Positions 1 to 28,058 are shown, counted from the stretch's first letter. The stretch is DNA of 32,000 nt from Deinococcus radiodurans R1 = ATCC 13939 = DSM 20539 (GCF_000008565.1 NC_001264.1:373338-405337); one strand, 5' to 3'. Notes: a model not told the origin generated them from the letters alone. Numbers and translations: made by a program.

Positions 1-210
1 ACGACATACGAACAATCTGTAAAAATGGACCGAGTGTAGACTTTATAGGCAAACCTGACACTCCCTGTTTCTTTAAGAAAAATTAGGATAGGTTAAGACC
101 AACGCAAGAGGCTTGTGTAAGAGAAGAAAAAGATGTGACTTCGTTCTGCCTCTGTGTGCCCGCTGCAGCTCCGTCGGCTTTCCGTCCTTCATCCCACAAG
201 AGGTCCTCAC

Positions 211-1518
211 ATGTCGAAGCTCTCCCTCACCCTCCTGGCTTCCCTCACTTCCGCCCTGCTGCTTGCCGGGTGCGGACAGGTCGCTCCGACCATCGCCCGC
301 CCTGTTGCCACGCAGGCTGCCACTGTGGCGACGGTCAGCATCAAGCCGGGCGATACGCCCGCAGCTGTGGAGGCCATGACCGGGGGCAAGGTCCTGCTAT
401 GGAACGCCGAGGGCTGCGACGATCACTGCACCGCTGTGGTCAGCCTGACTCAGTCAAAGTTGATGGCGCAGGGCCTTAACGTGGGCCGCCACATTTCTGT
501 CGAAGCCAACCACAACCGAGTCAAGAACCTGGGTGCCCGGCCCATCTGGATCTGGTCGGTAGGGATGCAGTCAGCCGAGCCCATGCGGGGCTTGGGCGCC
601 CGGCCCATCTGGATCTGGGGGGGCAACCTCTGGCAAGACGGGCAGTACCAGCCCTTGCCGGAAAATACGGCGGCGTGGCAGCAGATCGGTTTGCCCGCCG
701 CGCAGGCCAGTGCCCCCAATGCGGGCAAATCGCAGGTCATCGCCGTGATCGACACTGGCGTCGACCTGGAGCACCCCGCTCTCAAGGGCGCCCTGACCCC
801 CGCCTCGACCTGGCTCGATCTGGTTGACGGCGACACGCTGCCGCAAGACGACGGGGAACTCGGCACGGGCGGCGTGGGCCACGGTACGGCGGTCGCCGGC
901 ATCGCGACCCAGGTGGCTCCGATGGTCCAGATCATGCCTGTTCGTGCGCTGGGGACCGACGGCTCGGGCGACATCAGCGCGGTGGTGCAGGCGATCGTGT
1001 GGGCGGTCGATCACGGCGCCAACATCATCAACTTGAGCCTGGGCAGCAATGAAGCCTCGGAAGCCCTGCAAAGTGCCGTGCGCTACGCCGACGAAAAGGG
1101 AGTCGCTGTGGTCGCCGCCGCAGGAAATGCGGGCAATAATGAACTGACCTACCCCGCCGCTTATGCCCGCACGAGTGCTGGCCTGCTGAGCGTCGGCAGT
1201 GTCTCAGACAGTGACGTGAAGTCGGGCTTTTCCAACTACGCCGCCTCGCTGGAGGTGCTGGCACCCGGTGAACGGATCGCGACCTACGCGCCGAACAATA
1301 AGCTCGCCCTGTGGACTGGAACGTCCATGTCGGCTCCAGTCGTTGCCGGGCTGCTGGCCCTGATGCAGGGCGAAAGACAGGCGGCCGGCGGGGAGAACGC
1401 TGTCACCGCACACGCACATGACATTTCCGGTATTGCCCTGAACCAGCCCTTTACCGGTGGCCTGGGCTACGGACGAATTGACGCGGCCGCCACTGTGCTG
1501 GGGTGGAAACAGCAGTAA
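211..1518 (+). CDS. Secreted subtilisin-like (S8) serine protease, probable lipoprotein
   Basis: The catalytic triad motifs are visible: VIAVIDTGVD (Asp), HGTAVAGI (His) and GTSMSAPVVAG (Ser). The N-terminus MSKLSLTLLASLTSALLLAGC looks like a lipobox signal peptide. The ATG at 211 is preceded by AAGAGG at about 196-201. The ORF track start at 154 lies upstream of that signal peptide and seems less likely. Confidence 0.85.
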   Translation: MSKLSLTLLASLTSALLLAGCGQVAPTIARPVATQAATVATVSIKPGDTPAAVEAMTGGKVLLWNAEGCDDHCTAVVSLTQSKLMAQGLNVGRHISVEANHNRVKNLGARPIWIWSVGMQSAEPMRGLGARPIWIWGGNLWQDGQYQPLPENTAAWQQIGLPAAQASAPNAGKSQVIAVIDTGVDLEHPALKGALTPASTWLDLVDGDTLPQDDGELGTGGVGHGTAVAGIATQVAPMVQIMPVRALGTDGSGDISAVVQAIVWAVDHGANIINLSLGSNEASEALQSAVRYADEKGVAVVAAAGNAGNNELTYPAAYARTSAGLLSVGSVSDSDVKSGFSNYAASLEVLAPGERIATYAPNNKLALWTGTSMSAPVVAGLLALMQGERQAAGGENAVTAHAHDISGIALNQPFTGGLGYGRIDAAATVLGWKQQ

Positions 1519-1530
1519 GGACAGTAGGGT

Positions 1531-5822: not shown

Positions 5823-6455
5823 CTACTCGGTCACGCGGTGGCTCACGCGCGGCGCCCCGACCCCGACGCGCCCCACCATTCGCCCCTGCACCTGCACCTG
5901 CTCGGCGGGAAAAGACAGGCGCGGCATGGCGGGGTTCTCGCTCGTCAGGAGGATGTCCTGGCCGAAGTGGTACAGCCGCTTGAGGGTCGCCGCATTGTCG
6001 CCGGGCACGAGGACCACCGCCACCTCGCCGTCGTGGACCTCGGGCGCCGGGCGCACCACCACGTAGTCGCCGTCCATCACGCCGATGCCGGTCATGCTTT
6101 CGCCGCGCACCCGCAGCAAGAAATCGCCCGCTTTCAGGCCGAGCAGCGCCTCGATGCTGGGGGTAAAGTCCTCGGGCGACTGCTCGGCAAGGGCCGGGAT
6201 GCCGGCGGCGATCTGGCCGTAGATCGGCAGCCCTTCGCCCAGCGCCGCCCGCGCCCGGTCCGTGACCTGCAACGGGCCGTAGCGCGTTTCGGCCGGCTGG
6301 AGGTAGCCGAGCTTGCGCAGGATGTTCACCTGCTGGCTGATTGCCTGCTTGGTGATGCCCACTTCCTGCGCCACCTGCCCCGCCGTGGCCCCCGCGCCCA
6401 GACGCAGGGTGGCTTGCAGGATGGAGCGGCGGGTGGGCGTCAGTTCAGGCGGCAT
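5823..6455 (-). CDS. lexA: LexA-type SOS repressor (S24 autopeptidase)
   Basis: The N-terminus is a winged-HTH (AGQVAQEVGITKQAISQQVNILRKLGYL). A candidate Ala-Gly cleavage site is QIAAGIP. The catalytic Ser is in RGESMTGIG and the Lys in ATLKRL. The start is ambiguous: ATG at 6455 (MPPELTPTRR) or in-frame GTG at 6485. Confidence 0.85.
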   Translation of the reverse strand: MPPELTPTRRSILQATLRLGAGATAGQVAQEVGITKQAISQQVNILRKLGYLQPAETRYGPLQVTDRARAALGEGLPIYGQIAAGIPALAEQSPEDFTPSIEALLGLKAGDFLLRVRGESMTGIGVMDGDYVVVRPAPEVHDGEVAVVLVPGDNAATLKRLYHFGQDILLTSENPAMPRLSFPAEQVQVQGRMVGRVGVGAPRVSHRVTE

Positions 6456-6507
6456 GTGCGCGCAGTTTGCCGCACGCCTTGTCACGGGTCAAGCGGCGGC
6501 CCAACCG

Positions 6508-7827: not shown

Positions 7828-9909
<2,082 letters not shown>

Positions 9910-13756: not shown

Positions 13757-14116
13757 ATGGCAAAGATTCTGATCATCGACGATTCCCCCGCCGACATCCG
13801 TTTCATGACCGAGGCGCTCCGGCCGACCGGACACGCGGTCGTGAGCATCAGCGATCCGCTGGAAGCAGAGGCGATCGTCGAGCGCGAGCGGCCCGATCTG
13901 GCGCTGCTCGACGTGGTGATGCCGCAGCGCAACGGGTACGAAACCCTGCGCGCACTCAAGAAGTTGCCGGCGGCGGCGGGCCTCAAGATCGTGATCGTGT
14001 CGAGCAAGAGCGCCGAAACCGACGTGAAGTGGGGCATGCGTCAGGGCGCCGCCGACTACCTCGCCAAGCCCTACACCCCCGAACAGGTCGCCGCCCTCGT
14101 GGCGCGGCACATCTGA
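13757..14116 (+). CDS. Single-domain CheY-like response regulator (PilG/PilH/PixH-like position)
   Basis: Receiver signatures are KILIIDDS, DLALLDVVMPQRNG (phospho-Asp), IVIVSSKS and DYLAKPY (Lys). AAGGAG lies at 13741-13746. The 67 upstream in-frame codons of the track ORF lie in lower-GC DNA and were rejected. Confidence 0.85.
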   Translation: MAKILIIDDSPADIRFMTEALRPTGHAVVSISDPLEAEAIVERERPDLALLDVVMPQRNGYETLRALKKLPAAAGLKIVIVSSKSAETDVKWGMRQGAADYLAKPYTPEQVAALVARHI

Positions 14117-14554
14117 ATGACCGACTCGCTGCTGCTGTTCCGGGTGGGCGAGCGCGTGCTGGCGTTGCCCGCCGCCGCTGCCCGGCAGGTGCGCCCGCTC
14201 GACATTCTGTCTCCCCTGCCCGGCAGCGGCGGCGCCCTGCTGGGCCTGAGCTCCGCCGCTGGCCGCGTGGTGCCGGTGGCCGACCTGCGCGCCCTGCTCG
14301 ACTGGCCCGCCGACACCAGTGACCAGCACAAGGACCGGCGGGCGCCGCTGCTGCTGCTGCTCGACATCCAGGACCAGACGCTGGGCCTGCCCGTCGACGA
14401 CGTGATCGGGTTTACCGAAGACCCCCAGACCCCCGGTGATGAGCTGCTCTCGTCCGAAACCCTGCTGGGCAGCTTTCAGGACGGGCACCGGGGGCACCTG
14501 CTGCACCCCGAGCTGCTGCTCAGCGCCCTCACCCGGCGCCTGAGCCCGGCCTGA
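14117..14554 (+). CDS. CheW-like coupling protein (PilI/PixI-like)
   Basis: [24 protein letters not shown]...[21 protein letters not shown] is the typical CheW-domain pattern. Its ATG directly abuts the upstream TGA (TGAATG). Confidence 0.75.
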
Positions 14555-14555
14555 C

Positions 14556-14601
14556 CCGGCCCCTCCTGCTTCCGGCCCCTCCTGCTCCGGCCCCCGCCGC
14601 T
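14556..14601 (+). repeat. Three tandem copies of a C-rich 15-mer (CCGGCCCCTCCTGCT) in the cheW-MCP spacer
   Basis: Two identical copies lie at 14556-14570 and 14572-14586. A diverged third copy, CCGGCCCCCGCCGCT, lies at 14587-14601. A TTTTCCCCTTTTCCC tract follows. Confidence 0.8.
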
Positions 14602-14630
14602 TTTCCCCTTTTCCCACAGGTACGCAACCC

Positions 14631-16862
14631 ATGTCGCAACAAGCCGAACTCAACCGTCTCGAGCCTCCTTTTTCCCGTCAGAACCGCAAGTCCAGCGACC
14701 TTTCGCGCGCGCCCCAGCGTTCGGGGCTGCTGGGCCGGCTGGGTATCGGCCAGAAGCTCGGGCTGATGGCGCTGAGCCTGGGCGTGCCGGTGGTGGGCCT
14801 GGCCGCGTGGCAGGCCACCCAGCAGCTGTCGCGCATCAACCACACCGTGACGCAGCTCCACGGCCTTCAGCAGACCGAGCCGCTCGCCGCCGTGCAGTCG
14901 GGCATGTACCTCTACGTGTACGGCCTCACCCACGACGACCCACAGGAACGCGCCAAAGGGGAAAAGGAAGCCTCGCAGGGCTTTGCGACCCTGGCGCCGC
15001 TGCTGCGGGGTCGCCCGGCGCAGCAGCTCAAGGCGACGCAGCAGGACTGGCAGGCGCTGCAACTCACCGCCGATTCCGCCGACAGCCGCGCCATCCTCGG
15101 CGCCTACGAAGCCCTGAGCCGCAACAACCAGCAACTGCTGGTGGACGACATGCTCAGCGCCGCCGGACTCGACAGCGAGCAAGACCCCGCGCTCGGCTCC
15201 TTGATCATGGCCAACCAGCGCCGCATCCCCAAACTGTCGTCCGAGCTTCAGCTGGCCGCCCTGACCGCCGACATGCTCACCCTGACCCCGAACGACGCCG
15301 GGCTGCGCCAGCAACTGCTGCGCCACACCGCGATCATCAGCGACGTGCTCGACGCTTACCGGGGTGACCTGGCGCGCGCCTACTCGCTGCGCCCCGAGCT
15401 GCGGCAGACCCTTCAGGCACCCACCGACAAGATGACCCGCGCCATCGACGACAGCCTTCAGCGCGCGCAGGCCGGGCTCGACAAAGGCACCTACGGCGAC
15501 GCCCTCGCCAAGAGCTACAGCCTCAGCCTCAACAGCCTGCGCGACTCGTACATCGCCACCATCACCTCGGTCGGCCAGGAACTGCTGGGCCGCGCCAAGG
15601 GCGGGTACGTGACGCTGGCCTTGCAGTTCGGCCTGCTGCTGCTGCTGCTCGGGGCCGTCGCCGCGCTGCTGTTTGCCCTGATGCGCGCCATCACGCGGCC
15701 CCTCTCGCAGCTCACCGACGCCTCGCGCCAGCTGTCGGCAGGCGACCTGAACGTAGACGTGCCGGTCACCACTCAGGACGAACTCGCGCTGCTGAGCCGG
15801 TCGTTCAACGACGCCGCCGCCGAGCTGCGCCGCAACCAGTTGCGGGTGGACCAGGAACGCGAGGAAGCCCAGCAGATGCAAAGCAACATCGGGGAGTTCC
15901 TCGACGTGACGATGGACATCGCCGACGGCGACCTCACCCGGCGCGGCAAGGTCACCGACGACGTGCTGGGCAACGTGGTGGACTCGATCAACCTGATGGT
16001 GGGCGAACTCGCCGACACGCTGCGGGAGGTGCAGGGCGCCTCGCAGTCGGTCAACCAGGGCTCGGCGCAGATGCTCACGACCACCGCCCAGATCGGCCAG
16101 GGTTCGCAGCTCACCGCCGAGCAGTCGCGCCGCCTCGCCGAGCGGGCCGCCGAGATCAGCCTGCGGATTCAGGACCTCGCCCGCAGCGCTCAGGACAGCG
16201 CCGCCGCCGCGCAGCAGGCACTTCAGACCTCACAGCAGGGGCAGCAGGCCGTGCAGGGCACCTTGCAGGGGATGGCCGCCATCCGCGAGGGCACCCAGGA
16301 CGTGGCGCAGACGATGCAGGCGCTGAGCGAGCGCTCCGAGCAGATTCAGGGCATCGTGGACACCATCACCCAGATTTCGAGCCAGACCAACTTGCTTTCG
16401 CTGCACGCTTCCATCGAGGCGGCGGGCGCGGGTGAAGCCGGCAGCCGCTTTGCCGTGGTGGCCGACGAAGTGCGCCAGCTCGCCGAGCAGACCAACGAAG
16501 CCACCGGGCGCGTGGCCGCTCTGATCACCACGCTGCAAAGCGACATCGCGCAGGTCCGGCAGGGCGTGCAGAGCAGCGCCGCGCAGGTGGAGAAGGGCTA
16601 CCGGGTGGCCGAGGAAGCCGGGAGCCGCCTGCAAGAACTCGGAGACATCGCGCAGCGGTCTGCGCAGCTCGCCGGGCAGATGTCGGACGTGTCGGGCGCC
16701 CAGGCGCGGGACATCGAGCAGCTCGGGCAGGGCGTGCAGGACATCGCCGCGCTTGCCGAGGGCGCCCAGCAGTCGGTGCAGCGGGGTCGCGGCGCCGCCG
16801 AGCAGCTGCGCGCCCTGGCGACCCAGCTCGATCAGAGCCTCAGCCGTTTCCGCTTGGGCTGA
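14631..16862 (+). CDS. Methyl-accepting chemotaxis protein 1 (two TM segments, HAMP, MCP signalling domain)
   Basis: TM1 is [19 protein letters not shown] periplasmic region of about 290 aa follows, then TM2 [17 protein letters not shown]. The HAMP is [38 protein letters not shown]. The signalling hairpin tip is [35 protein letters not shown]. Confidence 0.85.
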
Positions 16863-16939
16863 ACTTCCCATTCCAGCCTGAGCTGAGCCGCCTGATCCTT
16901 CTCTCCCTTCTTTTTTCTCCGATGTTTGCAGGAGCCGAA

Positions 16940-19210
16940 ATGCTACAGAATGTTCCCAGCACCGAACTTGCCGCGCGGCCTGCACCGGGCCGGCAGGCGG
17001 CTTCCGGTCCTTCCCTTCCCCGCGCGCCCCGCTGGATCGACCGCCTGAGTGTGGCCCAGAAACTGGGGCTGGCCGGCGCTTTGTTTTTCGTGCCGTTGGT
17101 GGTCAACGTGACCGCCGCCGCCTCCACCCTGATGCGCATCGTGCAGCCGGTCGCCGGGGCCGAGCAGATCATGCCGTTCGTCAACGCGACCACCGACTTG
17201 CAGCGCGCCCTCGACGACCTGACGCTCGCAGCGAGCGCCCAGACGAGCCCCGCCGCGGCCCGGCAACGGGCCGAGCAGGCCCTGACGCAGCTCGGCGCTC
17301 TGCTCGACTCCGAGGCCTCGACCAACCCCATCAGCCCCCTGCCCGAGATCCGGCGGGAACTGCGCCAAACGCTGCAGTTCGCCAACTTCAGGGCGCAGGT
17401 GGAGCGTTACCTCGCCCTGCCCCCCAGCGGGGACCGGGTGAGCAGCTACGGCACGGTGAACAGCGCCGTGCAAAATGTGCTCAAAAACATCACGCAGGCG
17501 AGTTCGCTCGACCTCGGCGGGGGCCAGCACACCATGTACCTGTTGCAGCGCGCCGCGCTGGGTGACGGCCTGATGGGGCTGCGCAGCAACCTCGTGCAGG
17601 CCGAGCTGCTCAACGACCGCCTGCGCCGCGGCGCTCCCAACGCCAGCGCCGACCGCACCCGGCTTTCGGCGCTCGTGACCCATATGAGCACGGAGGTGGG
17701 GCAGACCCAGGAGGCGCTGAACGACGCCGTGCGGGAGCGCCCCGAACAGGCCCGGGCACTGAGCAGCGAGATGCAGCAGCTGAGCAACATGATGTCGCTG
17801 GTCCTGGGCAACCTGCGCGCCGCGGCGTCCGGCGCCGGGGGCAGCACCTCACAGGCCCTGATCGACCGCAACCTGCAGAAGATCGACCGGCTCTACGCCC
17901 AGACGAGCGCGGCCCTGTCGCAAGAAGGGAAAAACTTCCAGGACGAATACGTCCGCAAGGGGATCGTCAACGGCCTGATCACTTTGCTCATCACTGCTCT
18001 GGCGACCTGGTTGCTGGTCTACATCCTGCAGCGCATCGTGCGCCAGCTGCGGCAGCTGACCACCAACGCGCAGGCGCTCACCGACGGGAACCTCAACATT
18101 CACCTGCCGGTCACGACCTCCGACGAGCTCGGCGTCCTGACCAGCTCCTTCAACGAGGCGGCGGCGCAGTTGCGGACCAACGCCGAGCGCGTCGAGCAGG
18201 AACGTCTCGAATCCCAGCGCCTCCAAGACCACATCGGCCAGTTCCTCGACGTCACCATGGACATCGCCGAAGGTGACCTCACCAAGCGCGGCGTCGTCAC
18301 CGAGGACATCCTCGGCAACGTCGTCGATTCCATCAACCTCATGACCGACGAACTCGCCACCACCCTGCAGCAGGTTCAGGCCGCCTCCGCCTCCGTCTCC
18401 GGAGGCTCAAAGCAAATGCTCGGCACCACCGAGGCCATCCAGCAGGGCGCGCAGCTCACCGCCGCCGAGGCCCAGCGGGTGGCCGAGCAGGTCAGCCAGA
18501 TCACCGCCGGGATTCGCCAGATGGCGCACAACGCCCAGACCTCGGCGCAGACGGCGCGTGAGGCGCTGCTCGCCTCACAGCAGGGGCAAGAGGCGCTGCA
18601 AGAGACGTTGGGGGGGATGCAGAACATCCGGCGGGAAGTGCAGCAGGTGTCCAAGCGCATCAAGACATTGGGCGACCGCTCGCTCGAGATTCAGGAAATC
18701 GTCGATACCATCTCCCAGATCGCCGAACAGACCCACCTGCTTGCCGTGAACGCCTCCATCGAGGCGGCGGGCGCCGGGGAGGCCGGGGGCCGCTTCGGGA
18801 TCGTCGCGGACTCGGTGCGCAAACTGGCGAACACTTCCGCGCAGGCAACCACCCGTATTGCGGGCCTGATCAAGAGCGTGCAGGCCGAGGTGCAGGACGT
18901 GATCGTGGAGGCCGAGGAAGGCACCCGTGAGGTGGAGCAGGGCTACCGCATCGCCGGCAGCGCCGGTCAGCGTCTCCAGGACATTGGTGAGCTCACCGAG
19001 CGCTCGGCGCAGCTTGCCGAAAGCATCGCGGCCTCGACCCAGGAGCAGGTGCAGAGCGTGGAGCGGGTGAACGCGGCGGTGCAGCAGATCGCCGAAGTGG
19101 CGCAGCGTTCGGAAAGCGCGGTGCAGCAGGGGCGCACAGCGGCGCAGCAACTCGAAGACCTCGCCCGGCAACTCGACACCAGTCTCGCCCGCTTCCGTCT
19201 GCCGGGCTAA
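16940..19210 (+). CDS. Methyl-accepting chemotaxis protein 2
   Basis: The architecture is the same as MCP 1. The tip is [36 protein letters not shown] prefer the ATG at 16940 (GGAG at 16931-16934, 5-nt spacer) over the track start at 16922. Confidence 0.85.
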   Translation: MLQNVPSTELAARPAPGRQAASGPSLPRAPRWIDRLSVAQKLGLAGALFFVPLVVNVTAAASTLMRIVQPVAGAEQIMPFVNATTDLQRALDDLTLAASAQTSPAAARQRAEQALTQLGALLDSEASTNPISPLPEIRRELRQTLQFANFRAQVERYLALPPSGDRVSSYGTVNSAVQNVLKNITQASSLDLGGGQHTMYLLQRAALGDGLMGLRSNLVQAELLNDRLRRGAPNASADRTRLSALVTHMSTEVGQTQEALNDAVRERPEQARALSSEMQQLSNMMSLVLGNLRAAASGAGGSTSQALIDRNLQKIDRLYAQTSAALSQEGKNFQDEYVRKGIVNGLITLLITALATWLLVYILQRIVRQLRQLTTNAQALTDGNLNIHLPVTTSDELGVLTSSFNEAAAQLRTNAERVEQERLESQRLQDHIGQFLDVTMDIAEGDLTKRGVVTEDILGNVVDSINLMTDELATTLQQVQAASASVSGGSKQMLGTTEAIQQGAQLTAAEAQRVAEQVSQITAGIRQMAHNAQTSAQTAREALLASQQGQEALQETLGGMQNIRREVQQVSKRIKTLGDRSLEIQEIVDTISQIAEQTHLLAVNASIEAAGAGEAGGRFGIVADSVRKLANTSAQATTRIAGLIKSVQAEVQDVIVEAEEGTREVEQGYRIAGSAGQRLQDIGELTERSAQLAESIAASTQEQVQSVERVNAAVQQIAEVAQRSESAVQQGRTAAQQLEDLARQLDTSLARFRLPG
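18232..19203 (+). repeat. Copy A of a ~970-bp near-identical duplicated segment (C-terminal half of MCP 2)
   Basis: It aligns without indels to 20699..21670 at a constant offset of 2467 nt. Long blocks are 100 percent identical, for example the ~113-nt run starting GGGGGGATGCAGAACATCCGGCGGG. Confidence 0.9.
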
Positions 19211-19412
19211 GGCGCTCCTTTTCGCGTCTCCCCTCCTCTCCTTTCCCATACGGACTGCGCTCCATTCCAGCACAGGCAGAAAAGCGCCGCCTGCGCTTCC
19301 ATACCGCGAAACCCGTCTTTTTCCTACTCGCATCCGCTCGGATTGAATCCGAAACAACAGGATTCACTCGGAATCCGTATCCCTTATTTCCGACCCTGCC
19401 AGGAGGCTGCCC

Positions 19413-21689
19413 ATGACCTACGCTCCCGATCCCGCTGCCGCGCATCCGGCGGCCCCCGCACGGCGCGATCAGCCGTCTCCCTCCTCACGTTCCCCGCGCG
19501 CCGGTTTTCTCAGCCGCCTCAGCGTGGGCCAGAAGCTGCTGCTCAGCAGCCTGACCCTGGGCCTGCCGCTGCTCGGCACCGGCCTGGCGCTCGCCAACGG
19601 CGCCCGGCAACAACAGCAACTCGCCGTGCGGGCCGCCGAAACGACCCAGTACTACGACCAGTTGCTGAAAGTGCAGCGCGACCTGACCGCCCTGCGCGCA
19701 GCGAGCAATGTCCGGCCCAGCCCCGCCGTCTTGAATGAACTCGAACAGGCCGCGAACGGGCTGGCTGCGGCCCCCACCCTGACCCCGGAAAGCCGGACGG
19801 TCGCCACCGCCGTCGGTCAGCAGGTCATGTCGGTGGCCGAGCAGCTGCGCGAGCACAGGCTCAACCCGGCCCAGCTCGACCACCTGACGACCAACATTCT
19901 GTCCGGTGACCTGCGCGACCTGTTTCGTCGGCCCGCCCGCGACGGGGGGCTGCTGACCGGCGGGTCCTTCGAGTCGCAGGCGCTCGCCACCATGATTTCC
20001 GTACGCTTGCCCAGCGACTTTTTGAACCTCAACACGACGACGGGCGACCTGTCGCGCTTGCTGACCCAGGAGCGCGCCGCCCAGGGCAAAACCCTCAGCG
20101 CGGAGCAGCGACTTCAGGCCCAGCGGCTGCTGCTGCAAGGACAAAGCGAAAGCGGGGTGCTGGAGCGCGATATCGAGGAACTGTTCAGCAACGTGCCCCA
20201 GGCCGGCGTTGACCTGAGTCCGGCCCTGACTGCGGCCCTCAACACTTCCCGGCAGATGCTCGCCGCCGCCGAAGCGCAGCTGGGCCAGCCCCTTACCCCC
20301 CAGACGGTCAACACGCTGCGCCGCGCCGACGAAGCCCAGGTGGAGGCCCAGTACGCCGCGCTCCGGGCCATCAACGACAGCATGAGCCAGAGCTTCGGGC
20401 AGCTGCAACAGCAGGCCACCCGGCGCCTCGCCCTGCTGCTCGGCGGCCTGGCGCTGCTGCTCGCGCTGGTGCTGCTCGTCAACCGCGCCCTGCTGCGCTC
20501 GATTCTGCGCCCGCTGGAACAGCTTACCTCGGCGTCCAAGCAGCTCGCCAGCGGCAACCTCGCCGTCAAGCTGCCGGTGACCTCCAACGACGAGTTCGGC
20601 ACCCTGGCGACGAGCTTCAACGAAGCCGCCACCCAGCTGCGCGCCAGCGCCGAGCGCACTGAGCAGGAGCGCGTGGAAGCCCAGCGGCTCCAGAACAACA
20701 TCGGTCAGTTCCTCGACGTCACCATGGACATCGCTGAAGGCGACCTCACCAAGCGCGGCGTCGTCACCGAGGACATCCTCGGCAACGTCGTCGACTCCAT
20801 CAACCTCATGACCGACGAACTCGCCGCCACCTTGCAGCAGGTTCAGGCCGCGTCCGCCTCCGTGTCCGGAGGCTCAAAGCAAATGCTCGGCACCACCGAA
20901 GCCATTCAGCAGGGCGCGCAGCTCACCGCCGCCGAGGCCCAGCGGGTGGCCGAGCAGGTCAGCCAGATCACCGCGACCATCCGTCAGATGGCGCAGAACG
21001 CCCAGACTTCTGCCCAGACGGCGCGTGAAGCGCTGCTCGCCTCGCAGCAGGGGCAAGAAGCGCTTCAGGAAACGCTGGGGGGGATGCAGAACATCCGGCG
21101 GGAAGTGCAGCAGGTGTCCAAGCGCATCAAGACATTGGGCGACCGCTCGCTCGAGATTCAGGAAATCGTCGATACCATCTCCCAGATCGCGCGGCGCACC
21201 AACCTGCTGGCGCTCAACGCCTCGGTGGAAGCGGCGGGCGCGGGCGACGCGGGCGGACGCTTCGGCGCCGTGGCCGATGAAATTCGTCAGCTCGCCACGA
21301 CCTCAGCGCAGGCGACGACGCGCATCGCGGGGCTGATCAAGAGCGTGCAGGCCGAAGTGCAGGACGTGATCGTGGAAGCCGAAGAAGGCACCCGCGAAGT
21401 GGAGCAGGGCTACCGCATCGCCGGCAGCGCCGGGCAACGCCTACAGGACATCGGTGAACTGACGGAGCGCTCGGCGCAGCTCGCTGAAAGCATCGCGGCC
21501 TCGACCCAGGAGCAGGTGCAGAGCGTGGAGCGGGTGAACGCGGCGGTGCAGCAGATCGCCGAAGTGGCGCAGCGCTCGGAAAGCGCGGTGCAGCAAGGAC
21601 GCAGCACGGCGCAGCAGCTCGAAGACCTCGCCCGTCAACTCGACACCAGCCTCGCCCGCTTCCGCCTGCCAGAGCCGGGCAGCGCGTAA
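19413..21689 (+). CDS. Methyl-accepting chemotaxis protein 3
   Basis: AGGAGG lies at 19401-19406, 6 nt before the ATG. The protein has two TM segments, a HAMP ([38 protein letters not shown]) and the tip [35 protein letters not shown]. Confidence 0.88.
20699..21670 (+). repeat. Copy B of the duplicated MCP C-terminal segment
   Basis: See copy A. By eye, identity outside a ~125-nt central patch is well above 90 percent. Confidence 0.9.
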
Positions 21690-21719
21690 GAAGCCTGCAA
21701 CGAACAGAAAGGTAGCGTG

Positions 21720-22760
21720 ATGGTTATGGCCCACAGCGAACTGCTTGAGAGCTTTAGAGAGGAGGCCGCCGAGGTCCTGAGCGGCCTGGAAGAGGGGGTC
21801 ACCGGCCTGCGGACGCTGAGCGGGGCCGCCGGACACGCCCACGACACGCCGGAACTCGCCGCCCACCTGGGCGACCTGAGTGTGCTCGCCCACCGCCTGC
21901 GCGGGAGCGCCGCCCTGTACGGCTACGCGCAGCTCTCCACCCTGGCCTCGCTGCAAGAGCGGCTGCTCGACGCCCGCCCGCAACTCGACCGCGAGCAGCA
22001 CCAGGAATTCCTGACCCTGCTCGAACAGGTCAACGCGGCGCTGCGCCAGGGCCTGAGCCGCTTGCAGGCCGGGGGCGACGACCACGACCTGGGGCTGCTC
22101 TTCGCCCGCTCGGGCGGGGCCACCACGTTGCAGCGTCTCCTCCAGCAGCGGCCCGACGCCTTCCAGATTCGGGCCTCGCGGCTGCACCATGCGCCGCCCA
22201 GTGATACTCCTTCCGAAACTGCTGAAGACGCCCCGGCGCCCCTCACGGTGGCCCAGGAAGTGCAGGCCTTCGTGCGCGACAACGCCGAGGTCTGGGAGTA
22301 CTTCGCGCCCGAAGTGCACGAGCACCTCGCCAGCCTGCGCGAACAGCTCGGGCGCGGCGAGGACGCCGACCTCCAGGTGATGTTCCGCGCCGCCCACACC
22401 ATCAAGGGCAGTGCGTACATGGTGGGCTTGCCGCCGCTGGGCGACTTCGCGCACGGTATGGAAGACCTGCTGGGCGCCGCCCGCGAGGGAGCGGTCAGCC
22501 TGAGCAGCGACGTGCGCGGCCTGCTCGCCGAGGCCACCGACACCATCGGCGACCTGCTGACGGTGGCCGCTGGCGCCGATGGCGCGGCGCTCCCCGCGCA
22601 ACTCACCGCCGTCACCGCGCGGTGCGCTCGGCCCACAGCGGTGAGCAGACCCCGGTGCCGCCCATGTCGGCGGCGGCTCCGGTTGTGGCTCCTGTCCCGG
22701 CCCCTGCTCCCGCCGCCGCGACCAGCATCCGTGTGCCGGCGGCGCGCCTCGAAGGGCTGA
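21720..22760 (+). CDS. cheA: CheA-like histidine kinase, N-terminal part with two Hpt domains (reading frame breaks near 22600-22660)
   Basis: The Hpt 1 signature is LSVLAHRLRGSAALYGY and the Hpt 2 signature is FRAAHTIKGSAYMVGLPPL. After ...PAQLTAVTAR the frame-0 translation turns into Arg/Cys/Pro-rich junk (CARPTAVSRPRCRPCRRRLRLW), while the +2 frame continues with a typical CheA linker. Confidence 0.7.
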   Translation: MVMAHSELLESFREEAAEVLSGLEEGVTGLRTLSGAAGHAHDTPELAAHLGDLSVLAHRLRGSAALYGYAQLSTLASLQERLLDARPQLDREQHQEFLTLLEQVNAALRQGLSRLQAGGDDHDLGLLFARSGGATTLQRLLQQRPDAFQIRASRLHHAPPSDTPSETAEDAPAPLTVAQEVQAFVRDNAEVWEYFAPEVHEHLASLREQLGRGEDADLQVMFRAAHTIKGSAYMVGLPPLGDFAHGMEDLLGAAREGAVSLSSDVRGLLAEATDTIGDLLTVAAGADGAALPAQLTAVTARCARPTAVSRPRCRPCRRRLRLWLLSRPLLPPPRPASVCRRRASKG

Positions 22761-24559
22761 TGGACCAGCTCGGCGAACTCGTGACCGCCCGCGCCCGCAT
22801 GACGCAGCTCCTGTCACGTCTCGACGAGTTGCAGGGCAGCATGACCGCCAGCCAGGAGCGGTTTCAGCGCACCGTGCGTGACTTCGAGGAGCGTTACCTC
22901 AACCCCGACATGGTGCGCGAGGAAGGCGCGGCCCCCACGACCCGCATGGGCGGCCTTGACCTTTCTCAGCAGTTCGCCGAGCTCGAATTCGACACCTACA
23001 ACGACCTGAACATCCTTTCGCGCTCGATTACCGAGCTGTCCGCCGACTTCGCCGAAGTGCGCCGGCGCCTGAGCGACACCGCGGCCGAGCTGTCCGAGGA
23101 AAACGAGCAGCTCGGCAAACTCGTGCGCCGCCTGCGCCTCGACGTGAACCAGACCAGCCGCGTGGCCTTCTCGCAAACGACCGCCCGCCTGCGGCGCTGG
23201 GCGCGCGAGCAGCAGGCCGACCTGACCCTGCAAGTCGAGGGCGAGGACGTGCTGATCGAAAGCGGCATCCTGCAACGTATCAGCGACCCGCTGCTGCACC
23301 TGCTGACCAACGCCGCGTACCACGGGCTGGCGAGCGAAAGCGCCGAAAGCCGCCGCGCCGCCGGCAAAAACCCCCAGGGCACCGTCTGGATTCGCGCCGC
23401 CGAACAGGGCAACTTTCTGGAAGTCACGGTGGCCGACGACGGGCAGGGCCTGGACTACGCCCGCATCCGCGAGCGGGCGCTGGAGCGCGGGCTGCGTTCG
23501 GCGCAGGAACTCGAACAGCTCAGCAGCGACGAACTCGGGCGCCTGATTCTTCTTCCCGGCTTTTCCACCGCCCGCGAGGTCGGCAACGTGGCCGGGCGTG
23601 GGGTGGGGCTGGACGTGGTCGCCACGGCGGTTCGTCAGCTCGGCGGCGAGCTGCTGATCAGCTCCGAGCGCGGCGTAGGCACAGCGTTTACCCTGCGTGT
23701 GCCGACCACGCAGCGCATCATGGACGTGCTGCACCTCGACCTGGGGGCTGGCCACCACGCCGCCCTGCCGGTGGGCAGCGTCCGCTCGCTGCGCGACGTG
23801 CCGCTCGGCGACCTGCGCCGCGACGACGGGCAACTGTGGCTCGACTTCGGCGGCCAGCCGGTGCCGGTGGTGGACGCCCGGCCCATCTGGGGGCACGCGC
23901 CGCAGGATACGGACACCGAAGCGCACCTCGCCGTGGTGTCGAGCATTTCCGGCCTGCTCGCCCTGCGCGTGCACGACTTCGGGGACATCGAAGAAGTCGC
24001 CGTGACCGCGCCCAGCGGCCTGCTCGCGCCGCTCGACTACCTCGCGGGGATGGCGGTGTCGGGGACCGGACAGGTGCTGGCGATTCTCGACCCGGCGGGC
24101 GTGCTGCGCCTGAGCCGCCGCCCCGCCACCTGGCTGGGTCAGGCCCAGCGGCAAGTCCAGGCGACTGGCAACCAACGTTTGCTGCTGGTGGACGACTCGC
24201 TGAGCGTGCGCCGGCTGGTGGGCCGCATGCTCGAACGCGGCGGTTATCAGGTGGTCACGGCGAGCGACGGCCAGGAAGCGCTCGACCTGCTGCAACAGGA
24301 CGCCGACTTCGGCGCGGTGGTCACCGACCTCGAAATGCCGCGCGTCAACGGCTACGAACTGCTCTCCGCCGTCCGCGCCCGCCCTGCCACCGCCGGGCTT
24401 CCCATGCTGGTCATGACCACCCGCGCCGGGGAAAAACACCAGCGGCTGGCCTTCCAGCTCGGCGCCGACGACTACTTCACCAAGCCGGTCAACGAGGCGC
24501 TGCTGCTGCGCCGCCTGGGCACCTTGCAGCAGGCGCAGCAGGCCGGGGTGAGCGCGTGA
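22622..24559 (+). CDS. cheA: CheA-like histidine kinase, C-terminal part: dimerisation, HATPase, CheW-like and C-terminal receiver domains (ChpA/PixL-like hybrid)
   Basis: After a Pro/Ala linker comes IRVPAARLEGLMDQLGELV (dimerisation). The N box is LLHLLTNAAYHG, G1 is VADDGQGLD and G2 is GRGVGLDVV. A CheW-like domain follows (MDVLHLDLGAGHHAALPVGSV). The REC domain shows RLLLVDDS, AVVTDLEMPRVNG, LVMTTRA and DYFTKP. No SD precedes either GTG 22622 or ATG 22664. Confidence 0.8.
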   Translation: MRSAHSGEQTPVPPMSAAAPVVAPVPAPAPAAATSIRVPAARLEGLMDQLGELVTARARMTQLLSRLDELQGSMTASQERFQRTVRDFEERYLNPDMVREEGAAPTTRMGGLDLSQQFAELEFDTYNDLNILSRSITELSADFAEVRRRLSDTAAELSEENEQLGKLVRRLRLDVNQTSRVAFSQTTARLRRWAREQQADLTLQVEGEDVLIESGILQRISDPLLHLLTNAAYHGLASESAESRRAAGKNPQGTVWIRAAEQGNFLEVTVADDGQGLDYARIRERALERGLRSAQELEQLSSDELGRLILLPGFSTAREVGNVAGRGVGLDVVATAVRQLGGELLISSERGVGTAFTLRVPTTQRIMDVLHLDLGAGHHAALPVGSVRSLRDVPLGDLRRDDGQLWLDFGGQPVPVVDARPIWGHAPQDTDTEAHLAVVSSISGLLALRVHDFGDIEEVAVTAPSGLLAPLDYLAGMAVSGTGQVLAILDPAGVLRLSRRPATWLGQAQRQVQATGNQRLLLVDDSLSVRRLVGRMLERGGYQVVTASDGQEALDLLQQDADFGAVVTDLEMPRVNGYELLSAVRARPATAGLPMLVMTTRAGEKHQRLAFQLGADDYFTKPVNEALLLRRLGTLQQAQQAGVSA

Positions 24560-25347
24560 CCGCCGTCCCCCGTTCTCCGGCCCGGCCCGAACTCGTGTCC
24601 GCCCTGCCGATTCTGACCATCCTCAACGACCCCGACCGGGCGGCGATGTACCGCCACCTCGCCGGGCAGGCGGGGGTGCCGACCATCGAGGCGGAGGGGG
24701 CGCTGCACGCCCTGACGCAGCTCGAGCGTATGCCGGTGGCGGCCATCATCTGCGACGCCCAGATGGAAGACATGAGCGGCGAGGACTTCCGCGAAGTGGT
24801 CACCGCCGAGGAAAGCACCCACGACGTGCCGGTGTACGTGCTGCCGCAGTTGCCGGAAGCTGGAAATGGGGACGCCGGGGCGCTGCCCACCAGCCCGCAG
24901 GTGCTCGGCGAAGTGCTGACCGAACTGGGCCTTTCACCCGCTCAGCTCCCGGTGCCGCTGCGGACAGGCGCCCCGGCGCACCTGCACGGCGACCTCTCGC
25001 AGTTCAGCCTGCCCGAATTCCTGAACTGGGTGGCCGAAATGCGCTTTTCCGGGCACTGGCTGGTCACGGTCAGCAGCCGTCAGGGCGCCGCGCAGCCGCT
25101 GGCCGGACATCTGGTGATGCGCGGGGGCGACCTCGTGTACGCCGAGTGCGGCGGGCACAGTGGCAAGGCCGCCGTCTTCACGTTGCTCCAGGCCATCGAG
25201 GAATACCGCGACGCCATCTTTCACTTCTACCTCGCCGAGGCGCCGGACGACGTGCGCTCGCCCGACCTGCACGCGGCCACGCCCCGGCTGCTGATCGAAC
25301 TGGCGGTGGACCTCGACCACCACGCCGCCGGGCACAGCCTGCACTGA
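24556..25347 (+). CDS. Degenerate receiver-like domain fused to a DUF4388 (PATAN-like) domain
   Basis: The GTG at 24556 overlaps the cheA stop (GTGA). The N-terminal half resembles REC (ILTILND, AAIICDAQMEDMSG) but lacks the usual Thr/Ser and Lys positions. The C-terminal half, LHGDLSQFSLPEFLNWVAEMRFSGHWLVTV...GHLVMRGGDLVYAECGGHSGKAAVFTLLQ, fits the DUF4388 pattern. The longer track ORF from 23836 overlaps cheA and was rejected. Confidence 0.6.
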   Translation: MTAVPRSPARPELVSALPILTILNDPDRAAMYRHLAGQAGVPTIEAEGALHALTQLERMPVAAIICDAQMEDMSGEDFREVVTAEESTHDVPVYVLPQLPEAGNGDAGALPTSPQVLGEVLTELGLSPAQLPVPLRTGAPAHLHGDLSQFSLPEFLNWVAEMRFSGHWLVTVSSRQGAAQPLAGHLVMRGGDLVYAECGGHSGKAAVFTLLQAIEEYRDAIFHFYLAEAPDDVRSPDLHAATPRLLIELAVDLDHHAAGHSLH

Positions 25348-25434
25348 TTGTGTCGCCCGTACGGCGCCTGTTTTTCCACTGAAGCTGCTTTCCCGCCTTC
25401 TTGACGTTTTCTCTTCCGACTGGAGCCCTTTTTC

Positions 25435-26196
25435 ATGCCTGACATCCTCATCGTCGACGACAGCATCAGCGTGCGTAAAGCGCTGGAAATCACCCTTCGC
25501 AACCACAACGTCTCCAGCGCCAGCGCCGTGAGCGCCGAGCAGGCCCTCGAGCGCCTCGCCGAAGACCCCGGCGCCTTCGACCTGCTGATGATCGACGTGA
25601 TCATGCCCGGCAAAAGCGGCGTGGAGCTGTGCGAGGAACTCAAGGCCGACCCGCGCTACGCCGCGCTGCCCGTCATCCTGATGAGCGGCAACGTGGACGA
25701 CGAGGTCAAGGAACAGGCGCAGCAGGTCGGCGCCGAGGGCCTGCTGAAAAAGCCTTTCCGCTCCGAGGAACTCATTCCCCTCGTTCAGAGCACCCTCGAA
25801 GACGCGCGGGAACGCCGCCAGCACGCGGCAGACGCGGTGCAGCCCCCGGCACCCGCCACCGAACAACCGGCAGCCGAGAAGATGGACGACGCGGCGCTCA
25901 CCGCGCTCTCGGACCTGCTCCAGACCTACGAGGACCACCCCCGCGTGCGCGACGTGGTGATGCTCGACCGCCAGGGCCAGCCGCTGCGTCAGACCGGCAA
26001 CGTGCTGCCCGAGAACATCCAGCTGTTCGCCCGTTTCTTCACCAACACGGCGGGTGTGCTGGGCAAGCAGATGCTCGGCGAGGACATTCAGGACGTGACC
26101 ATCCGCTACGGCGGGCACGAGATGGTGATTCACAACCTGCCCGAGCACTTCGTGGTGGTGCTGATGGGCGAGGGGCAGCCCAGCCTGCAAGCCTGA
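25435..26196 (+). CDS. Response regulator receiver fused to a C-terminal Roadblock/LC7 (MglB-like) domain
   Basis: The REC domain is canonical: ILIVDDS, LLMIDVIMPGKSG, VILMSGN and LLKKPF. After a Pro/Ala linker the segment LTALSDLLQTYEDHPRVRDVVMLDRQGQPLRQTGNVLPENIQLFARFFTNTAGVLGKQMLGEDIQDVTIRYGGHEMVIHNLPEHFVVVLMGEG has the Roadblock/LC7 pattern. The Roadblock assignment is by eye. Confidence 0.6.
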   Translation: MPDILIVDDSISVRKALEITLRNHNVSSASAVSAEQALERLAEDPGAFDLLMIDVIMPGKSGVELCEELKADPRYAALPVILMSGNVDDEVKEQAQQVGAEGLLKKPFRSEELIPLVQSTLEDARERRQHAADAVQPPAPATEQPAAEKMDDAALTALSDLLQTYEDHPRVRDVVMLDRQGQPLRQTGNVLPENIQLFARFFTNTAGVLGKQMLGEDIQDVTIRYGGHEMVIHNLPEHFVVVLMGEGQPSLQA

Positions 26197-26202
26197 ATCC
26201 CG

Positions 26203-27102
26203 TCAGGGCTGCGCTCCCGGCAGCCACTCCCACGCCACGCCGAGGCCCCCGAGCAGCCGCTCGACCTCGGCGTGGCGTTCGCCGCTCACCACGTCCCGAA
26301 TGAGAATCCGCTCGACCCGGCCCGGCCAGGCGCGGACGAACGCCGCGTAAATCTCCGGGTCGCGCTCACCGCTGTCGCCGAGCAGGGTGAAGGTGGCCCC
26401 GGTCTGCCGGGCGAGGGTATCGAGCGCCTGTCCCTTGTGCTGGGCGCCGGACACGCTGGGAAAATCGCGCAGCAGCAGCGGCCCGGCGGGAAAGCCACGC
26501 GTGCCCAGCAGCTCCTGCAATGGGGCGCCGAGTCCTTCGGGGCTGTTGCTGAGGTACACCATCGGCCCCCGCGCCGCCTCCGCTTGCAAGAGGGCCTGCA
26601 CCCCCGGAAACACCGGACGCGTCAGCGCGTTTTGCCGCAGGATGCGCGCCGCGCCGCCCTGCCGCACGCCGGTCACGATGACGGTGTCGTCAAGGTCGGT
26701 CACAGTAAGGTGAGCGGCCCTGTTCAACTGCCAGTCGGGCGCCGCCTGTGCCCCGGCGCCCGGCACCTCCACCCGCACCGCTCCGGCCCCCGGCGGCAGC
26801 GTGCAGGCGGCGTGGCCCCGATCATCGGTCTGGGTGTTCACCGTCTCTCCCCTTTCCGGCGTGCAGCGCACCGGCACCCCGGCAAGCGGGTTGGGCAGCA
26901 GTTGCGAGAGGGTCCGCAGCACATTCACCGCCGCGCTGTCTTCTGCCCGCGCCGGGCGCTGGCCCCAGGGGTCGTCCTCGGCGACGCGCACTTCCACCCG
27001 GCCCGGCTGCGGGTGGGCAAGCAGGGTGAGCTGCGCGGCGCTGGCACTGGCGGGAAGCAGGGTGAGGATGGCATAGGTCAGGGCAATGCGGCGCAGCGTC
27101 AT
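26203..27102 (-). CDS. Secreted App1-like phosphatidate phosphatase family protein (DUF2183) with N-terminal beta-sandwich
   Basis: The signal peptide is MTLRRIALTYAILTLLPASASA. The HAD-like DxDxT motif is VTDLDDTV. Also present are YLSNSPEGL, GFPAGPLLLRDF and LLGDSGERDPEIYAAFVRAWPGRVERILIRDV, which is characteristic of the App1 catalytic domain. Confidence 0.7.
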   Translation of the reverse strand: MTLRRIALTYAILTLLPASASAAQLTLLAHPQPGRVEVRVAEDDPWGQRPARAEDSAAVNVLRTLSQLLPNPLAGVPVRCTPERGETVNTQTDDRGHAACTLPPGAGAVRVEVPGAGAQAAPDWQLNRAAHLTVTDLDDTVIVTGVRQGGAARILRQNALTRPVFPGVQALLQAEAARGPMVYLSNSPEGLGAPLQELLGTRGFPAGPLLLRDFPSVSGAQHKGQALDTLARQTGATFTLLGDSGERDPEIYAAFVRAWPGRVERILIRDVVSGERHAEVERLLGGLGVAWEWLPGAQP

Positions 27103-28058
27103 TTCGCCTGACAGGCTGCCATGAAGTCGTCCGGTTCATCCAGATGCAGGCTGACCCGCCGCGCCTCGCGCTCGCTGCCGAAGAGGCCCCAGAGCCGCAC
27201 CGGCTCGGCAAAGGTCAGGGTCACGTTGGGCTTCACGTCAATGGCGATCCTCAGGGCGTCCCCGTCGGTTTCAAGGCAATAGGGCGCGGCCCCGGCTACG
27301 TTCGCCAGCGGGGTGCTGCCGGTCCAGTGCAGGCCACTGCGGAGGTACAGCCGCTGCCCTCCGACTGTCACCGGGCGCAGACTCAGGGCGCGGGCATAGG
27401 CGAGGAGCCAAATGGCGCCCAAGACTTCCAGCACGGTCCAGCCCCACGCTGCCGACTCATTCCAGCGGGCGAGCAGGACGTGGGCCAGCAGGCCTTCCAC
27501 CAGAGTGGCGAACAGCAGCAGCGTGACGGTGGCTGAAGTCGCCGTGCCCCGGCGGGTGCCGAACGGTTGGCCGGTGGGCAGGCGAGGCCGCCGCACGAGA
27601 TGGCTGAGCATCAGCATGTCCTGAAGCACCAGCCGGACCCCGCGTGGCTGCGCCGAAAAGCGCGACCAGTACGCGTAGACCCGTTCCAGGTCATCCAGTT
27701 CGGCGTACCCCTCCGGCAGCGGCGTCCGCAGCCCGCGCCACGCGAACGCCGCGCCCACCAGCAGGCCGAACGCTTCCAACCACAGGGAGTGCCGCAACAA
27801 CGGAAACACCAGACCGGCGAGCGCCACGCCGCGCAGCACGATGCCGAGCAGGGGCCGCCAGTGCCGTTCCTGGCGCGGTGTGACCAGAAAAACGAGGGCG
27901 GCGGTGGTGAGGGTCGCGTCGAAAAGGGCCGCGTGCGCGAGGCGCGGCGTGTCTTGCGGAAAGCGCACGCTCAGGGCCAGCGCCGCTGTCAGGACAAACG
28001 CGGGCCACAGCCAGGCCAGGCGGCGAGGAAAGGGGACCGCACGCAGCGTTTGCACCAT
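27099..28058 (-). CDS. Integral membrane protein of unknown function
   Basis: Several hydrophobic helices are visible (LAWLWPAFVLTAALALSV, LTTAALVFLV, VALAGLVFPLL, AFGLLVGAAFAW, TVTLLLFATLVEGLLAHVLLA, VLEVLGAIWLLAYA). A soluble tail of about 90 aa follows. Its stop overlaps the start of the App1-like gene (ATGA). Confidence 0.55.
   Translation of the reverse strand: MVQTLRAVPFPRRLAWLWPAFVLTAALALSVRFPQDTPRLAHAALFDATLTTAALVFLVTPRQERHWRPLLGIVLRGVALAGLVFPLLRHSLWLEAFGLLVGAAFAWRGLRTPLPEGYAELDDLERVYAYWSRFSAQPRGVRLVLQDMLMLSHLVRRPRLPTGQPFGTRRGTATSATVTLLLFATLVEGLLAHVLLARWNESAAWGWTVLEVLGAIWLLAYARALSLRPVTVGGQRLYLRSGLHWTGSTPLANVAGAAPYCLETDGDALRIAIDVKPNVTLTFAEPVRLWGLFGSEREARRVSLHLDEPDDFMAACQAK

Follow-up and report, generated by a model that had tools for sequence, protein, structure and literature searches.

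We have analysed a 32,000-nucleotide stretch of chromosome II of Deinococcus radiodurans R1 (NC_001264.1:373338-405337; hereafter the window, with positions counted from its first letter), and describe within it an operon of eight genes (13757-26196, + strand; approximately DR_A0350 to DR_A0357) that encodes a chemosensory core followed by two unusual output proteins. It is apparently the only chemotaxis-like cluster of R1. We propose that the operon specifies a pathway resembling the type IV pilus (Tfp) class, cyanobacterial Tax and Pseudomonas Pil-Chp systems, operating without methylation-based adaptation, and that it steers the activity or placement of type IV pili. The pilus output is one that we infer, and we give this reading a probability of roughly 55%; it would extend to surface motility and possibly to DNA uptake via pili, not to flagella. 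The domain content of the operon, the conservation of its gene module in other genomes and the clustering of that module with mglA-mglB in one genome are observed directly. The cluster as such is of a known kind. The apparently undescribed features are the conserved pair of output proteins, one a pseudo-receiver/PATAN protein and the other a receiver (REC)-Roadblock protein, and the link of this pair to mglA-mglB.

A chemosensory core with no adaptation enzymes in the window

A listing of open reading frames (ORFs), frame choice based on GC content at third codon positions (GC3) and Pfam searches together resolve eight genes, in agreement with the run of tightly packed same-strand genes described in an earlier note made from the sequence alone. 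Their order is CheY, CheW, three methyl-accepting chemotaxis proteins (MCPs), CheA, pseudo-receiver/PATAN and REC-Roadblock. The coding frames are genuine, with GC3 of 0.81-0.92 and the first- and second-position GC pattern of true genes. All core components (MCP, CheW and CheA) are encoded together, and their Pfam scores lie far above the cutoffs.

13757..14116, +, CheY/PilH-like single-domain response regulator, DR_A0350, 119 aa (Pfam Response_reg 83.9 bits; exact match AAF12434)
14117..14554, +, CheW, 145 aa (Pfam CheW 66.6 bits; exact match AAF12507)
14631..16862, +, MCP1, 743 aa (Pfam HAMP and MCPsignal)
16922..19210, +, MCP2, 762 aa (Pfam HAMP and MCPsignal)
19413..21689, +, MCP3, 758 aa (Pfam HAMP and MCPsignal)
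21720..24559, +, cheA, biologically 946 aa, in two frames in the present sequence (Pfam on both fragments)
24556..25347, +, pseudo-receiver and PATAN (DUF4388/PatA_N) protein, DR_A0356, 263 aa (Pfam and AlphaFold2 model)
25435-26196, +, REC-Roadblock protein, DR_A0357 (Response_reg 81.8 bits, then about 110 residues)

The stop codon of the CheY gene abuts the CheW start (TGA/ATG), giving the TGAATG junction previously reported, and the receiver of DR_A0350 keeps the canonical DD, Asp, Ser and Lys in alignment. No gene for CheR, CheB, CheD, CheZ, CheC or CheV and no flagellar gene was found among the window's ORFs by Pfam, which bears out and widens the absence of CheR, CheB, CheD, CheZ and flagellar genes given in the earlier note; the neighbourhoods of seven related loci likewise contain no CheR or CheB.

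All three MCPs have a pair of transmembrane segments, a HAMP and a signalling domain, and the HAMP and MCPsignal matches (119-127 bits) uphold their earlier identification. In the periplasmic regions, of about 270 aa each, Pfam found no domain even with E relaxed to 10. The distance from the hairpin tip to the C-terminus is 141-146 residues (141 in MCP1), equal to 20 heptads per arm and thus to the 40-heptad length. Correspondingly, the proteins align nearly end to end with the Pseudomonas aeruginosa MCP CtpM (314 versus 315 residues). The Escherichia coli MCPs, which belong to the 36-heptad class, align over a stretch shorter by about 27 residues. The CheR-tethering pentapeptide is at the C-terminus of none of the three. 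Consensus-like methylation sites occur in MCP2 and MCP3 and not in MCP1, and such sites are uninformative in Ala/Gln-rich coiled coils. Additionally, the signalling halves of MCP2 and MCP3 (18000-19210 and 20470-21689) are 94-100% identical at the protein level beside sensor halves that are only about 20% identical, a pattern indicating that probably the output module alone was recently duplicated or gene-converted, with inputs that differ.

The kinase architecture resembles that of the Tfp class

Pfam places in CheA two Hpt domains, a dimerisation region, HATPase_c, a CheW-like P5 domain and a C-terminal REC. The His that accepts phosphate is conserved in Hpt1 (AHRLRGSA) and in Hpt2 (AHTIKGSA), and no match to a P2 domain was found by Pfam. 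The dimerisation region spans about 150 aa (about residues 335-484), and the alignment with Thermotoga maritima CheA starts only at residue 455. Thus, the two Hpt domains and terminal REC that the earlier note assigned to CheA are present; in this sequence, however, cheA is not a single ORF, and the note overlooked a change of frame at about 22622, which is considered below.

A survey of 13,673 CheA proteins found that most CheAs with a CheY-like domain lack P2, and that the longest dimerisation domains are those of Tfp-class kinases from Cyanobacteria and Chloroflexota (PMC10782961). In the same survey, Tfp-class kinases predominantly carry two or more Hpt domains and a C-terminal REC, lack P2 and often have a lengthened dimerisation domain. 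The operon CheA, which combines two Hpt domains and a REC with a dimerisation region about 150 aa long and gives no P2 match, has this predominant Tfp architecture, and the Pil/Tax-like affinity that the earlier note had drawn from gene order and CheA holds up on this comparison. The survey's supplement includes an archaeal 'cheaTfp' entry with an identical domain string and a dimerisation length of 132. Homologues of CheA and CheY are labelled ChpA and PilH, respectively, in IMG, labels that derive from KEGG. NCBIfam offered no class-specific names for the operon proteins, and PDB sequence searches with CheY and CheA gave generic matches with no PilH/PilG signal.

Two output proteins follow the kinase

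The GTG start of DR_A0356 overlaps the cheA stop codon (GTGA), the coupling reported previously. Its C-terminal part matches DUF4388/PatA_N (PF14332) at 33.9 bits against a cutoff of 25 (residues 144-255; profile 1-120 of 122), and the family is matched in orthologues as well. The N-terminal half adopts a CheY fold in an AlphaFold2 model (predicted local distance difference test, pLDDT, 87.7), with a sub-threshold Pfam REC match (21.2 bits, cutoff 30). Alignment with canonical receivers shows DD replaced by Leu-Asn, the Thr/Ser missing and the Lys replaced by Thr; the acceptor position is Asp in Deinococcus only, and Gly, Ala or Ser in orthologues from Methylomirabilota, Gemmatimonadota and a 3.9-Mb genome. 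Despite its CheY-like fold, this half therefore lacks what a phosphorylatable receiver requires. Because the catalytic residues are lost, DR_A0356 is a pseudo-receiver fused to PATAN, as the earlier note had it, and a conventional phospho-effector role is ruled out.

The last gene of the operon is presumably DR_A0357, which papers list among response regulators. It comprises two parts:

25435..25800, +, canonical receiver (Response_reg 81.8 bits, residues 4-116)
25882..26196, +, C-terminal Roadblock/LC7 (MglB-like) domain (AlphaFold2 model, Foldseek and profile)

The receiver has all of the DD, Asp, Ser and Lys residues. Of the domains listed in the earlier note, Roadblock had the least secure basis and needed other evidence, as Robl_LC7 (PF03259) scores 17.4 bits, below its cutoff of 23 (profile 4-88 of 91). 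An AlphaFold2 model made from 25 orthologues covers the last 114 residues with confidence (pLDDT 83.8) and has the alpha-beta-beta-alpha-beta-beta-beta topology of the Roadblock fold. The top 50 Foldseek matches to this model in the PDB are all Roadblock/LC7, MglB or LAMTOR/MP1-p14 structures (probability 1.0, E down to 4.5e-7), among them the MglB structures 1j3w, 6izw, 6h5b, 6hjm and 3t1r, and a sequence profile of the domain likewise places Roadblock chains first among its PDB matches.

An exhaustive search of 1.84 billion representative proteins recovered 65 relatives of the domain at E up to 0.001, nearly all of them 230-360 aa long with the Roadblock domain at the C-terminus. Among ten sampled relatives, eight carry a receiver at the N-terminus and three score above the Pfam cutoff for Roadblock (26-33 bits); another relative, found with the Roadblock profile, reaches 40.7 bits for Robl_LC7, again above the cutoff. 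We therefore regard the predicted Roadblock identity of the C-terminal domain as confirmed by model and sequence relatives despite the sub-threshold Pfam score, and conclude that REC-Roadblock response regulators are a small, distinct family. Its most conserved positions, Thr58, Ala59 and Gly63 in family alignment numbering, lie in the stretch modelled as the second helix. In MglB, the second helix carries the MglA-binding patch (A68/A72 in Thermus thermophilus, A64/G68 in Myxococcus xanthus; PMC3199381). The DR_A0357 domain shares the fold of the MglB and Roadblock/LC7 family and differs from its members in being only 12-20% identical, in lacking the C-terminal helix extension of MglB and in being fused to a receiver.

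The module recurs in other phyla

In the neighbourhoods of CheA homologues, the order REC, CheW, MCP (one to three copies), CheA, REC/PATAN, REC/Roadblock is found again at the following loci:

L005, Deinococcus gobiensis plasmid: module present
L006, Deinococcus aquiradiocola: module present
L001, Deinococcaceae metagenome-assembled genome (MAG): module present
L007, 3.9-Mb genome: module present
L009, Gemmatimonadota MAG: module order kept, Roadblock match weak and partial (E 2e-4)
L011, Methylomirabilota MAG: module present

In five of these loci the last gene is a strong match to the Roadblock profile, and in L009 a weak one. Pairwise similarity to the REC/PATAN partner is full length in L007 and L009; for the REC-Roadblock protein it is full length in L007 and covers the receiver and the start of the C-terminal domain in L009. 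The overlap of cheA with the PATAN gene is preserved in L005, L006, L009 and L011. Thus, the module is common to Deinococcota and Methylomirabilota, and probably to Gemmatimonadota. An apparent restriction of the output pair to Deinococcus proved to be an artefact of a word-index search, as the CheA neighbourhoods place the pair in other phyla. That both terminal genes accompany this CheA in several phyla fits the effector role suggested for them in the earlier note, except that DR_A0356 cannot be an effector of the conventional phosphorylated kind.

In the Methylomirabilota genome, the module is followed on the same strand by genes for a 1107-aa protein, a 205-aa GTPase and a 161-aa Roadblock protein (L011 8217-12636). 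The GTPase is MglA, with a full-length match to the M. xanthus and T. thermophilus proteins (E 9e-68 for M. xanthus), and the Roadblock protein matches MglB (E 2e-24). Additionally, in L007 a gene 6 kb downstream of the module encodes an MglB (E 3e-32 against the T. thermophilus protein).

Other genes were noted beside these and related modules. The 1107-aa protein of L011 has no known domain, and may belong to the same system. A GAF-GGDEF protein is encoded beside the module on the same strand in D. gobiensis (L005 14571-16088), and a GGDEF protein on the opposite strand in D. aquiradiocola (L006 15369-16433). Two Nitrospira loci, L008 and L010, were considered as carriers of the module and rejected, as their downstream genes are others and their REC proteins have no match to the Roadblock profile. 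There (L008 12897-15890, L010 11392-14591), CheA is followed by two CheW genes, a receiver protein of 334-397 aa without Roadblock and more unknown proteins; these loci represent a different output set on a related kinase.

Relation to known systems

The cyanobacterial Tax/Pix systems (PixG-H-I-J-L in Synechocystis) share with the Deinococcus operon the order CheY, CheW, MCP, CheA, a multi-Hpt CheA with a long dimerisation domain and C-terminal REC, an operon without CheR or CheB, and a complement of one plain CheY and one PATAN protein per system. Accordingly, the window holds a plain CheY with CheW, MCP, a multi-Hpt CheA-REC and no methylation enzymes. The PATAN protein itself departs from the cyanobacterial type: the PatA-type regulator has an N-terminal PATAN followed by a phosphorylatable REC, whereas DR_A0356 has the reverse order, with a receiver that lacks DD, Thr and Lys. 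Moreover, the Deinococcus PATAN gene lies after cheA and overlaps it, and the REC-Roadblock protein is extra. The MCPs also differ, being transmembrane with unknown periplasmic sensors in Deinococcus, whereas the Tax/Pix sensors are GAF photoreceptors.

The Pil-Chp system of P. aeruginosa (PilG/PilH-PilI-PilJ-PilK-ChpA-ChpB-ChpC) likewise has a CheY-like protein first, CheW, MCP and a multi-Hpt CheA-REC, and shares the 40-heptad MCP, at least two response regulators that are possibly antagonistic, and the ChpA and PilH database labels. In contrast, its cluster includes PilK (CheR) and ChpB (CheB), both of which are missing from the Deinococcus cluster and related loci, and ChpA has eight or nine Hpt domains where the Deinococcus CheA has two. 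The Deinococcus operon also has no PilG-type partner and no known link to FimL, FimV or CyaB, and its outputs are instead PATAN and Roadblock.

The Frz pathway of M. xanthus, acting on MglA, MglB and RomR, shares the theme of a chemosensory kinase, receivers and a Roadblock regulator of a Ras-like GTPase that positions pilus motors. In Myxococcus the receivers (FrzX, FrzZ and RomR) and the Roadblock proteins (MglB and MglC) are separate polypeptides encoded elsewhere, whereas in Deinococcus receiver and Roadblock are fused; Frz also has CheR and CheB homologues and a cytoplasmic MCP, unlike the Deinococcus operon. We regard this resemblance as functional only and make no claim of membership.

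Prior knowledge of the locus

The locus has been annotated in GenBank since 1999 under names such as 'PilH, putative', CheW and MCP; AAF12434 is named 'response regulator PilH, putative', and papers use the tag DR_A0350. In line with the earlier note, no functional work on the locus, or on chemosensory systems of Deinococcus in general, was found in the literature searched, where the locus tags occur only in omics tables and gene lists. DR_A0350, annotated as 'response regulator PilH', rises about four-fold during biofilm formation (PMC10778927), and DR_A0357 is in a list of response regulators (PMC8363230). Tags of the locus also turn up in a heat-stress transcriptome (PMC6888292), a microgravity proteome (PMC8779699) and a small-RNA study (PMC6843392).

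The description of Deinococcus as classically non-motile, adopted in the earlier note, is out of date. Surface motility of D. radiodurans was reported in 2025 and attributed to type IV pili, with its purpose an open question for the authors (PMC12393216). The strains in that study were picked for their type IV pilus and pilT genes, and T. thermophilus is described there as having neither MCPs nor Pil-Chp. D. radiodurans has an MglA with an MglB partner, and Tfp genes are found in members of Deinococcus (PMC3000849). In Synechocystis, the PATAN regulators PixG and PixE bind the PilB1 motor (bioRxiv 10.1101/2021.06.11.447907), and PATAN genes are often near mglA/mglB (bioRxiv 10.1101/2021.06.11.447907; PMC4316618).

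A proposed model for control of type IV pili

We infer the phosphotransfer steps, the targets of both output proteins and the cellular output along the following lines. The three MCPs, with different sensors and near-identical signalling tips, would form arrays with CheW and CheA. CheA would autophosphorylate on Hpt and pass phosphate to three canonical receivers, those of the CheY/PilH-like protein, of CheA itself and of the REC-Roadblock protein. The first two would probably act as sink or antagonist, in place of the absent methylation adaptation. Phosphorylated REC-Roadblock might then alter how its MglB-like domain engages MglA, or an MglA/MglB pair encoded elsewhere in the genome, and so shift where or whether pili are assembled. 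The PATAN protein, translationally coupled to cheA, may serve as an adaptor to a PilB-type extension ATPase, by analogy with PixG and PixE.

Several points weigh against this pilus reading. Clustering with mglA-mglB occurs in only one of the seven related loci, and pilus genes are absent from the window and from the seven related loci examined. GGDEF genes flank the module in two Deinococcus species, and induction of DR_A0350 in biofilms fits a non-pilus output too. The alignment of DR_A0357 with M. xanthus MglB covered only alpha1-beta2, short of the helix that bears the MglA-binding patch. Likeness to the Tfp class is judged by architecture and KEGG-derived labels. DR_A0356 has a degenerate receiver and the reverse of the domain order in cyanobacterial PatA-type proteins, so that it must be controlled in another way than they are. 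Finally, D. radiodurans is a coccus that grows in tetrads, in which 'polarity' has no obvious meaning.

We also consider, as a tentative and on balance unlikely elaboration, that the operon is a minimal chemosensory-to-polarity circuit. CheA would phosphorylate the receiver-Roadblock protein and so make a GTPase-activating protein (GAP) or anti-GAP activity toward MglA phosphorylation-dependent, with the PATAN adaptor tethering the PilB motor. Such a circuit would be a one-polypeptide equivalent of the link from Frz to RomR, MglB and MglC in Myxococcus, and in coccoid D. radiodurans would set the sites at which pili, or the machinery for DNA uptake, are active. Support for a possible MglB-like GAP function of DR_A0357 comes from context, with mglA-mglB in the same cluster in L011.

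A possible alternative cellular function

A doubtful alternative is that the core controls placement of the septum or division plane, biofilm or exopolysaccharide formation, or cyclic di-GMP (c-di-GMP), with the PATAN and Roadblock proteins targeting the divisome or another NTPase. MglA is only one of many NTPases under the control of Roadblock domains. PatA of Anabaena localises to division sites. Localisation of PatA has been cited for a role in spatiotemporal protein dynamics (bioRxiv 10.1101/2021.06.11.447907), and the roughly four-fold rise of DR_A0350 in biofilms (PMC10778927) would suit such an output. GGDEF proteins adjoin the module in D. gobiensis and D. aquiradiocola, and a TPR-HD-GGDEF protein is encoded 10 kb upstream in the window; however, the flanking GGDEF genes vary in position and strand, the sole informative neighbourhood (L011) points to MglA/MglB, and a pilus ATPase is the one partner of PATAN proteins known from experiment.

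Kinase classification bears on this alternative as well, since multi-Hpt CheAs with REC are also found in the alternative cellular function (ACF) class (PMC10782961). CheAs of Deinococcus grandis, Deinococcus indicus and Deinococcus misasensis are assigned to the MiST class ACF in that survey's supplement; as recorded there, however, they differ from the operon CheA in being 595-679 aa long, with no Hpt called and a dimerisation length of about 62. These shorter ACF kinases show that the genus holds at least two kinds of chemosensory kinase.

The break in cheA

In the window, cheA changes frame at about 22622, and three-frame translations place ORFs 21717-22760 and 22622-24559 in different frames.

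22621..22624, +, one-base deletion splitting cheA (GCGCGG^TGCGC)

Taken at face value, the frameshift would mean that the pathway is dead in R1 and that the operon is a decaying relic in a bacterium with no need for taxis. The RefSeq annotation of the 412,348-bp record carries cheA as two proteins of 344 and 624 aa, and the assembly with UTA52298/9 also splits cheA, at a different place. We nevertheless consider this very unlikely. One C inserted after 22622 restores exactly the 946-aa protein of re-sequenced D. radiodurans genomes (P0358), and the nearest database CheA homologues (P0001/P0358) are intact at 946 aa. An intact 946-aa CheA is encoded on 151 contigs. Several other D. radiodurans assemblies are among their sources (accessions QEM73135, QIP30589 and QIP33497); a further D. 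radiodurans assembly has a CheA of 944 aa (ANC72866). The CheA orthologues are intact across the genus Deinococcus, and the remaining operon genes are intact with normal codon bias. The 1999 R1 sequence is known to contain many single-base errors. Because re-sequenced R1 genomes carry the intact gene, the break is probably an error in that original sequence, the biological gene being single, and the split kinase in the RefSeq annotation would follow from it.

A conventional flagellar chemotaxis system can be dismissed: the core set of MCP, CheW, CheA and CheY is present, but the window has no flagellar gene, CheR, CheB, CheZ, CheC or CheD, such a CheA architecture would be unusual in an F class, neither output protein corresponds to a component of flagellar systems, and Deinococcus is not known to have flagella.

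Regulatory signals and flanking genes

A promoter and terminator scan found no promoter-like sites, and terminator-like sites only at chance rate; an Rfam search of the window returned nothing. One terminator-like site falls in the 87-nt gap between the PATAN and REC-Roadblock genes:

25350..25377, +, GC-rich terminator-like hairpin with a T-run

This hairpin could be an internal attenuator, although its significance is doubtful, as such sites occur at the rate expected from shuffled sequence. The genes on either side are unrelated in function to the chemosensory cluster:

Upstream flank: S8 protease, TPR-HD-GGDEF protein, aldehyde dehydrogenases, LexA, erythromycin-esterase-like protein, metallo-beta-lactamase-fold protein and ABC exporter
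Downstream flank: APP1-like phosphatase, threonine synthase, CorA, DUF1003 protein and FAD oxidoreductase

The start of the window (1-4113) has a GC content of 0.61, versus about 0.68 elsewhere, and encodes the S8 subtilase and an 860-aa protein with TPR, HD (HD_5) and GGDEF domains; the latter is possibly a c-di-GMP signalling gene, perhaps horizontally acquired. A LexA repressor (HTH and Peptidase_S24; 5823-6485, - strand; exact match AAF12438) lies about 7 kb upstream of the operon. Two ORFs with good codon bias, of 300 aa (7828-8730, -) and 319 aa (27099-28058, -), match no Pfam family at E up to 0.001, and the 319-aa ORF has only a faint match to Bax1-I (E 0.036).

Significance

D. radiodurans is a model organism, and the operon described here is the obvious candidate controller of its surface motility. 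Our analysis also points to a probable sequencing error in the reference cheA. After CheA, a Roadblock protein with a phosphorylatable receiver and a PATAN protein form a conserved pair, which in one phylum clusters with mglA-mglB; this suggests that chemoreceptors may be linked directly to a small-GTPase polarity switch. Such a route would be much simpler than the Frz/Mgl network of Myxococcus and, as D. radiodurans is genetically tractable and naturally transformable, could be tested in this host.

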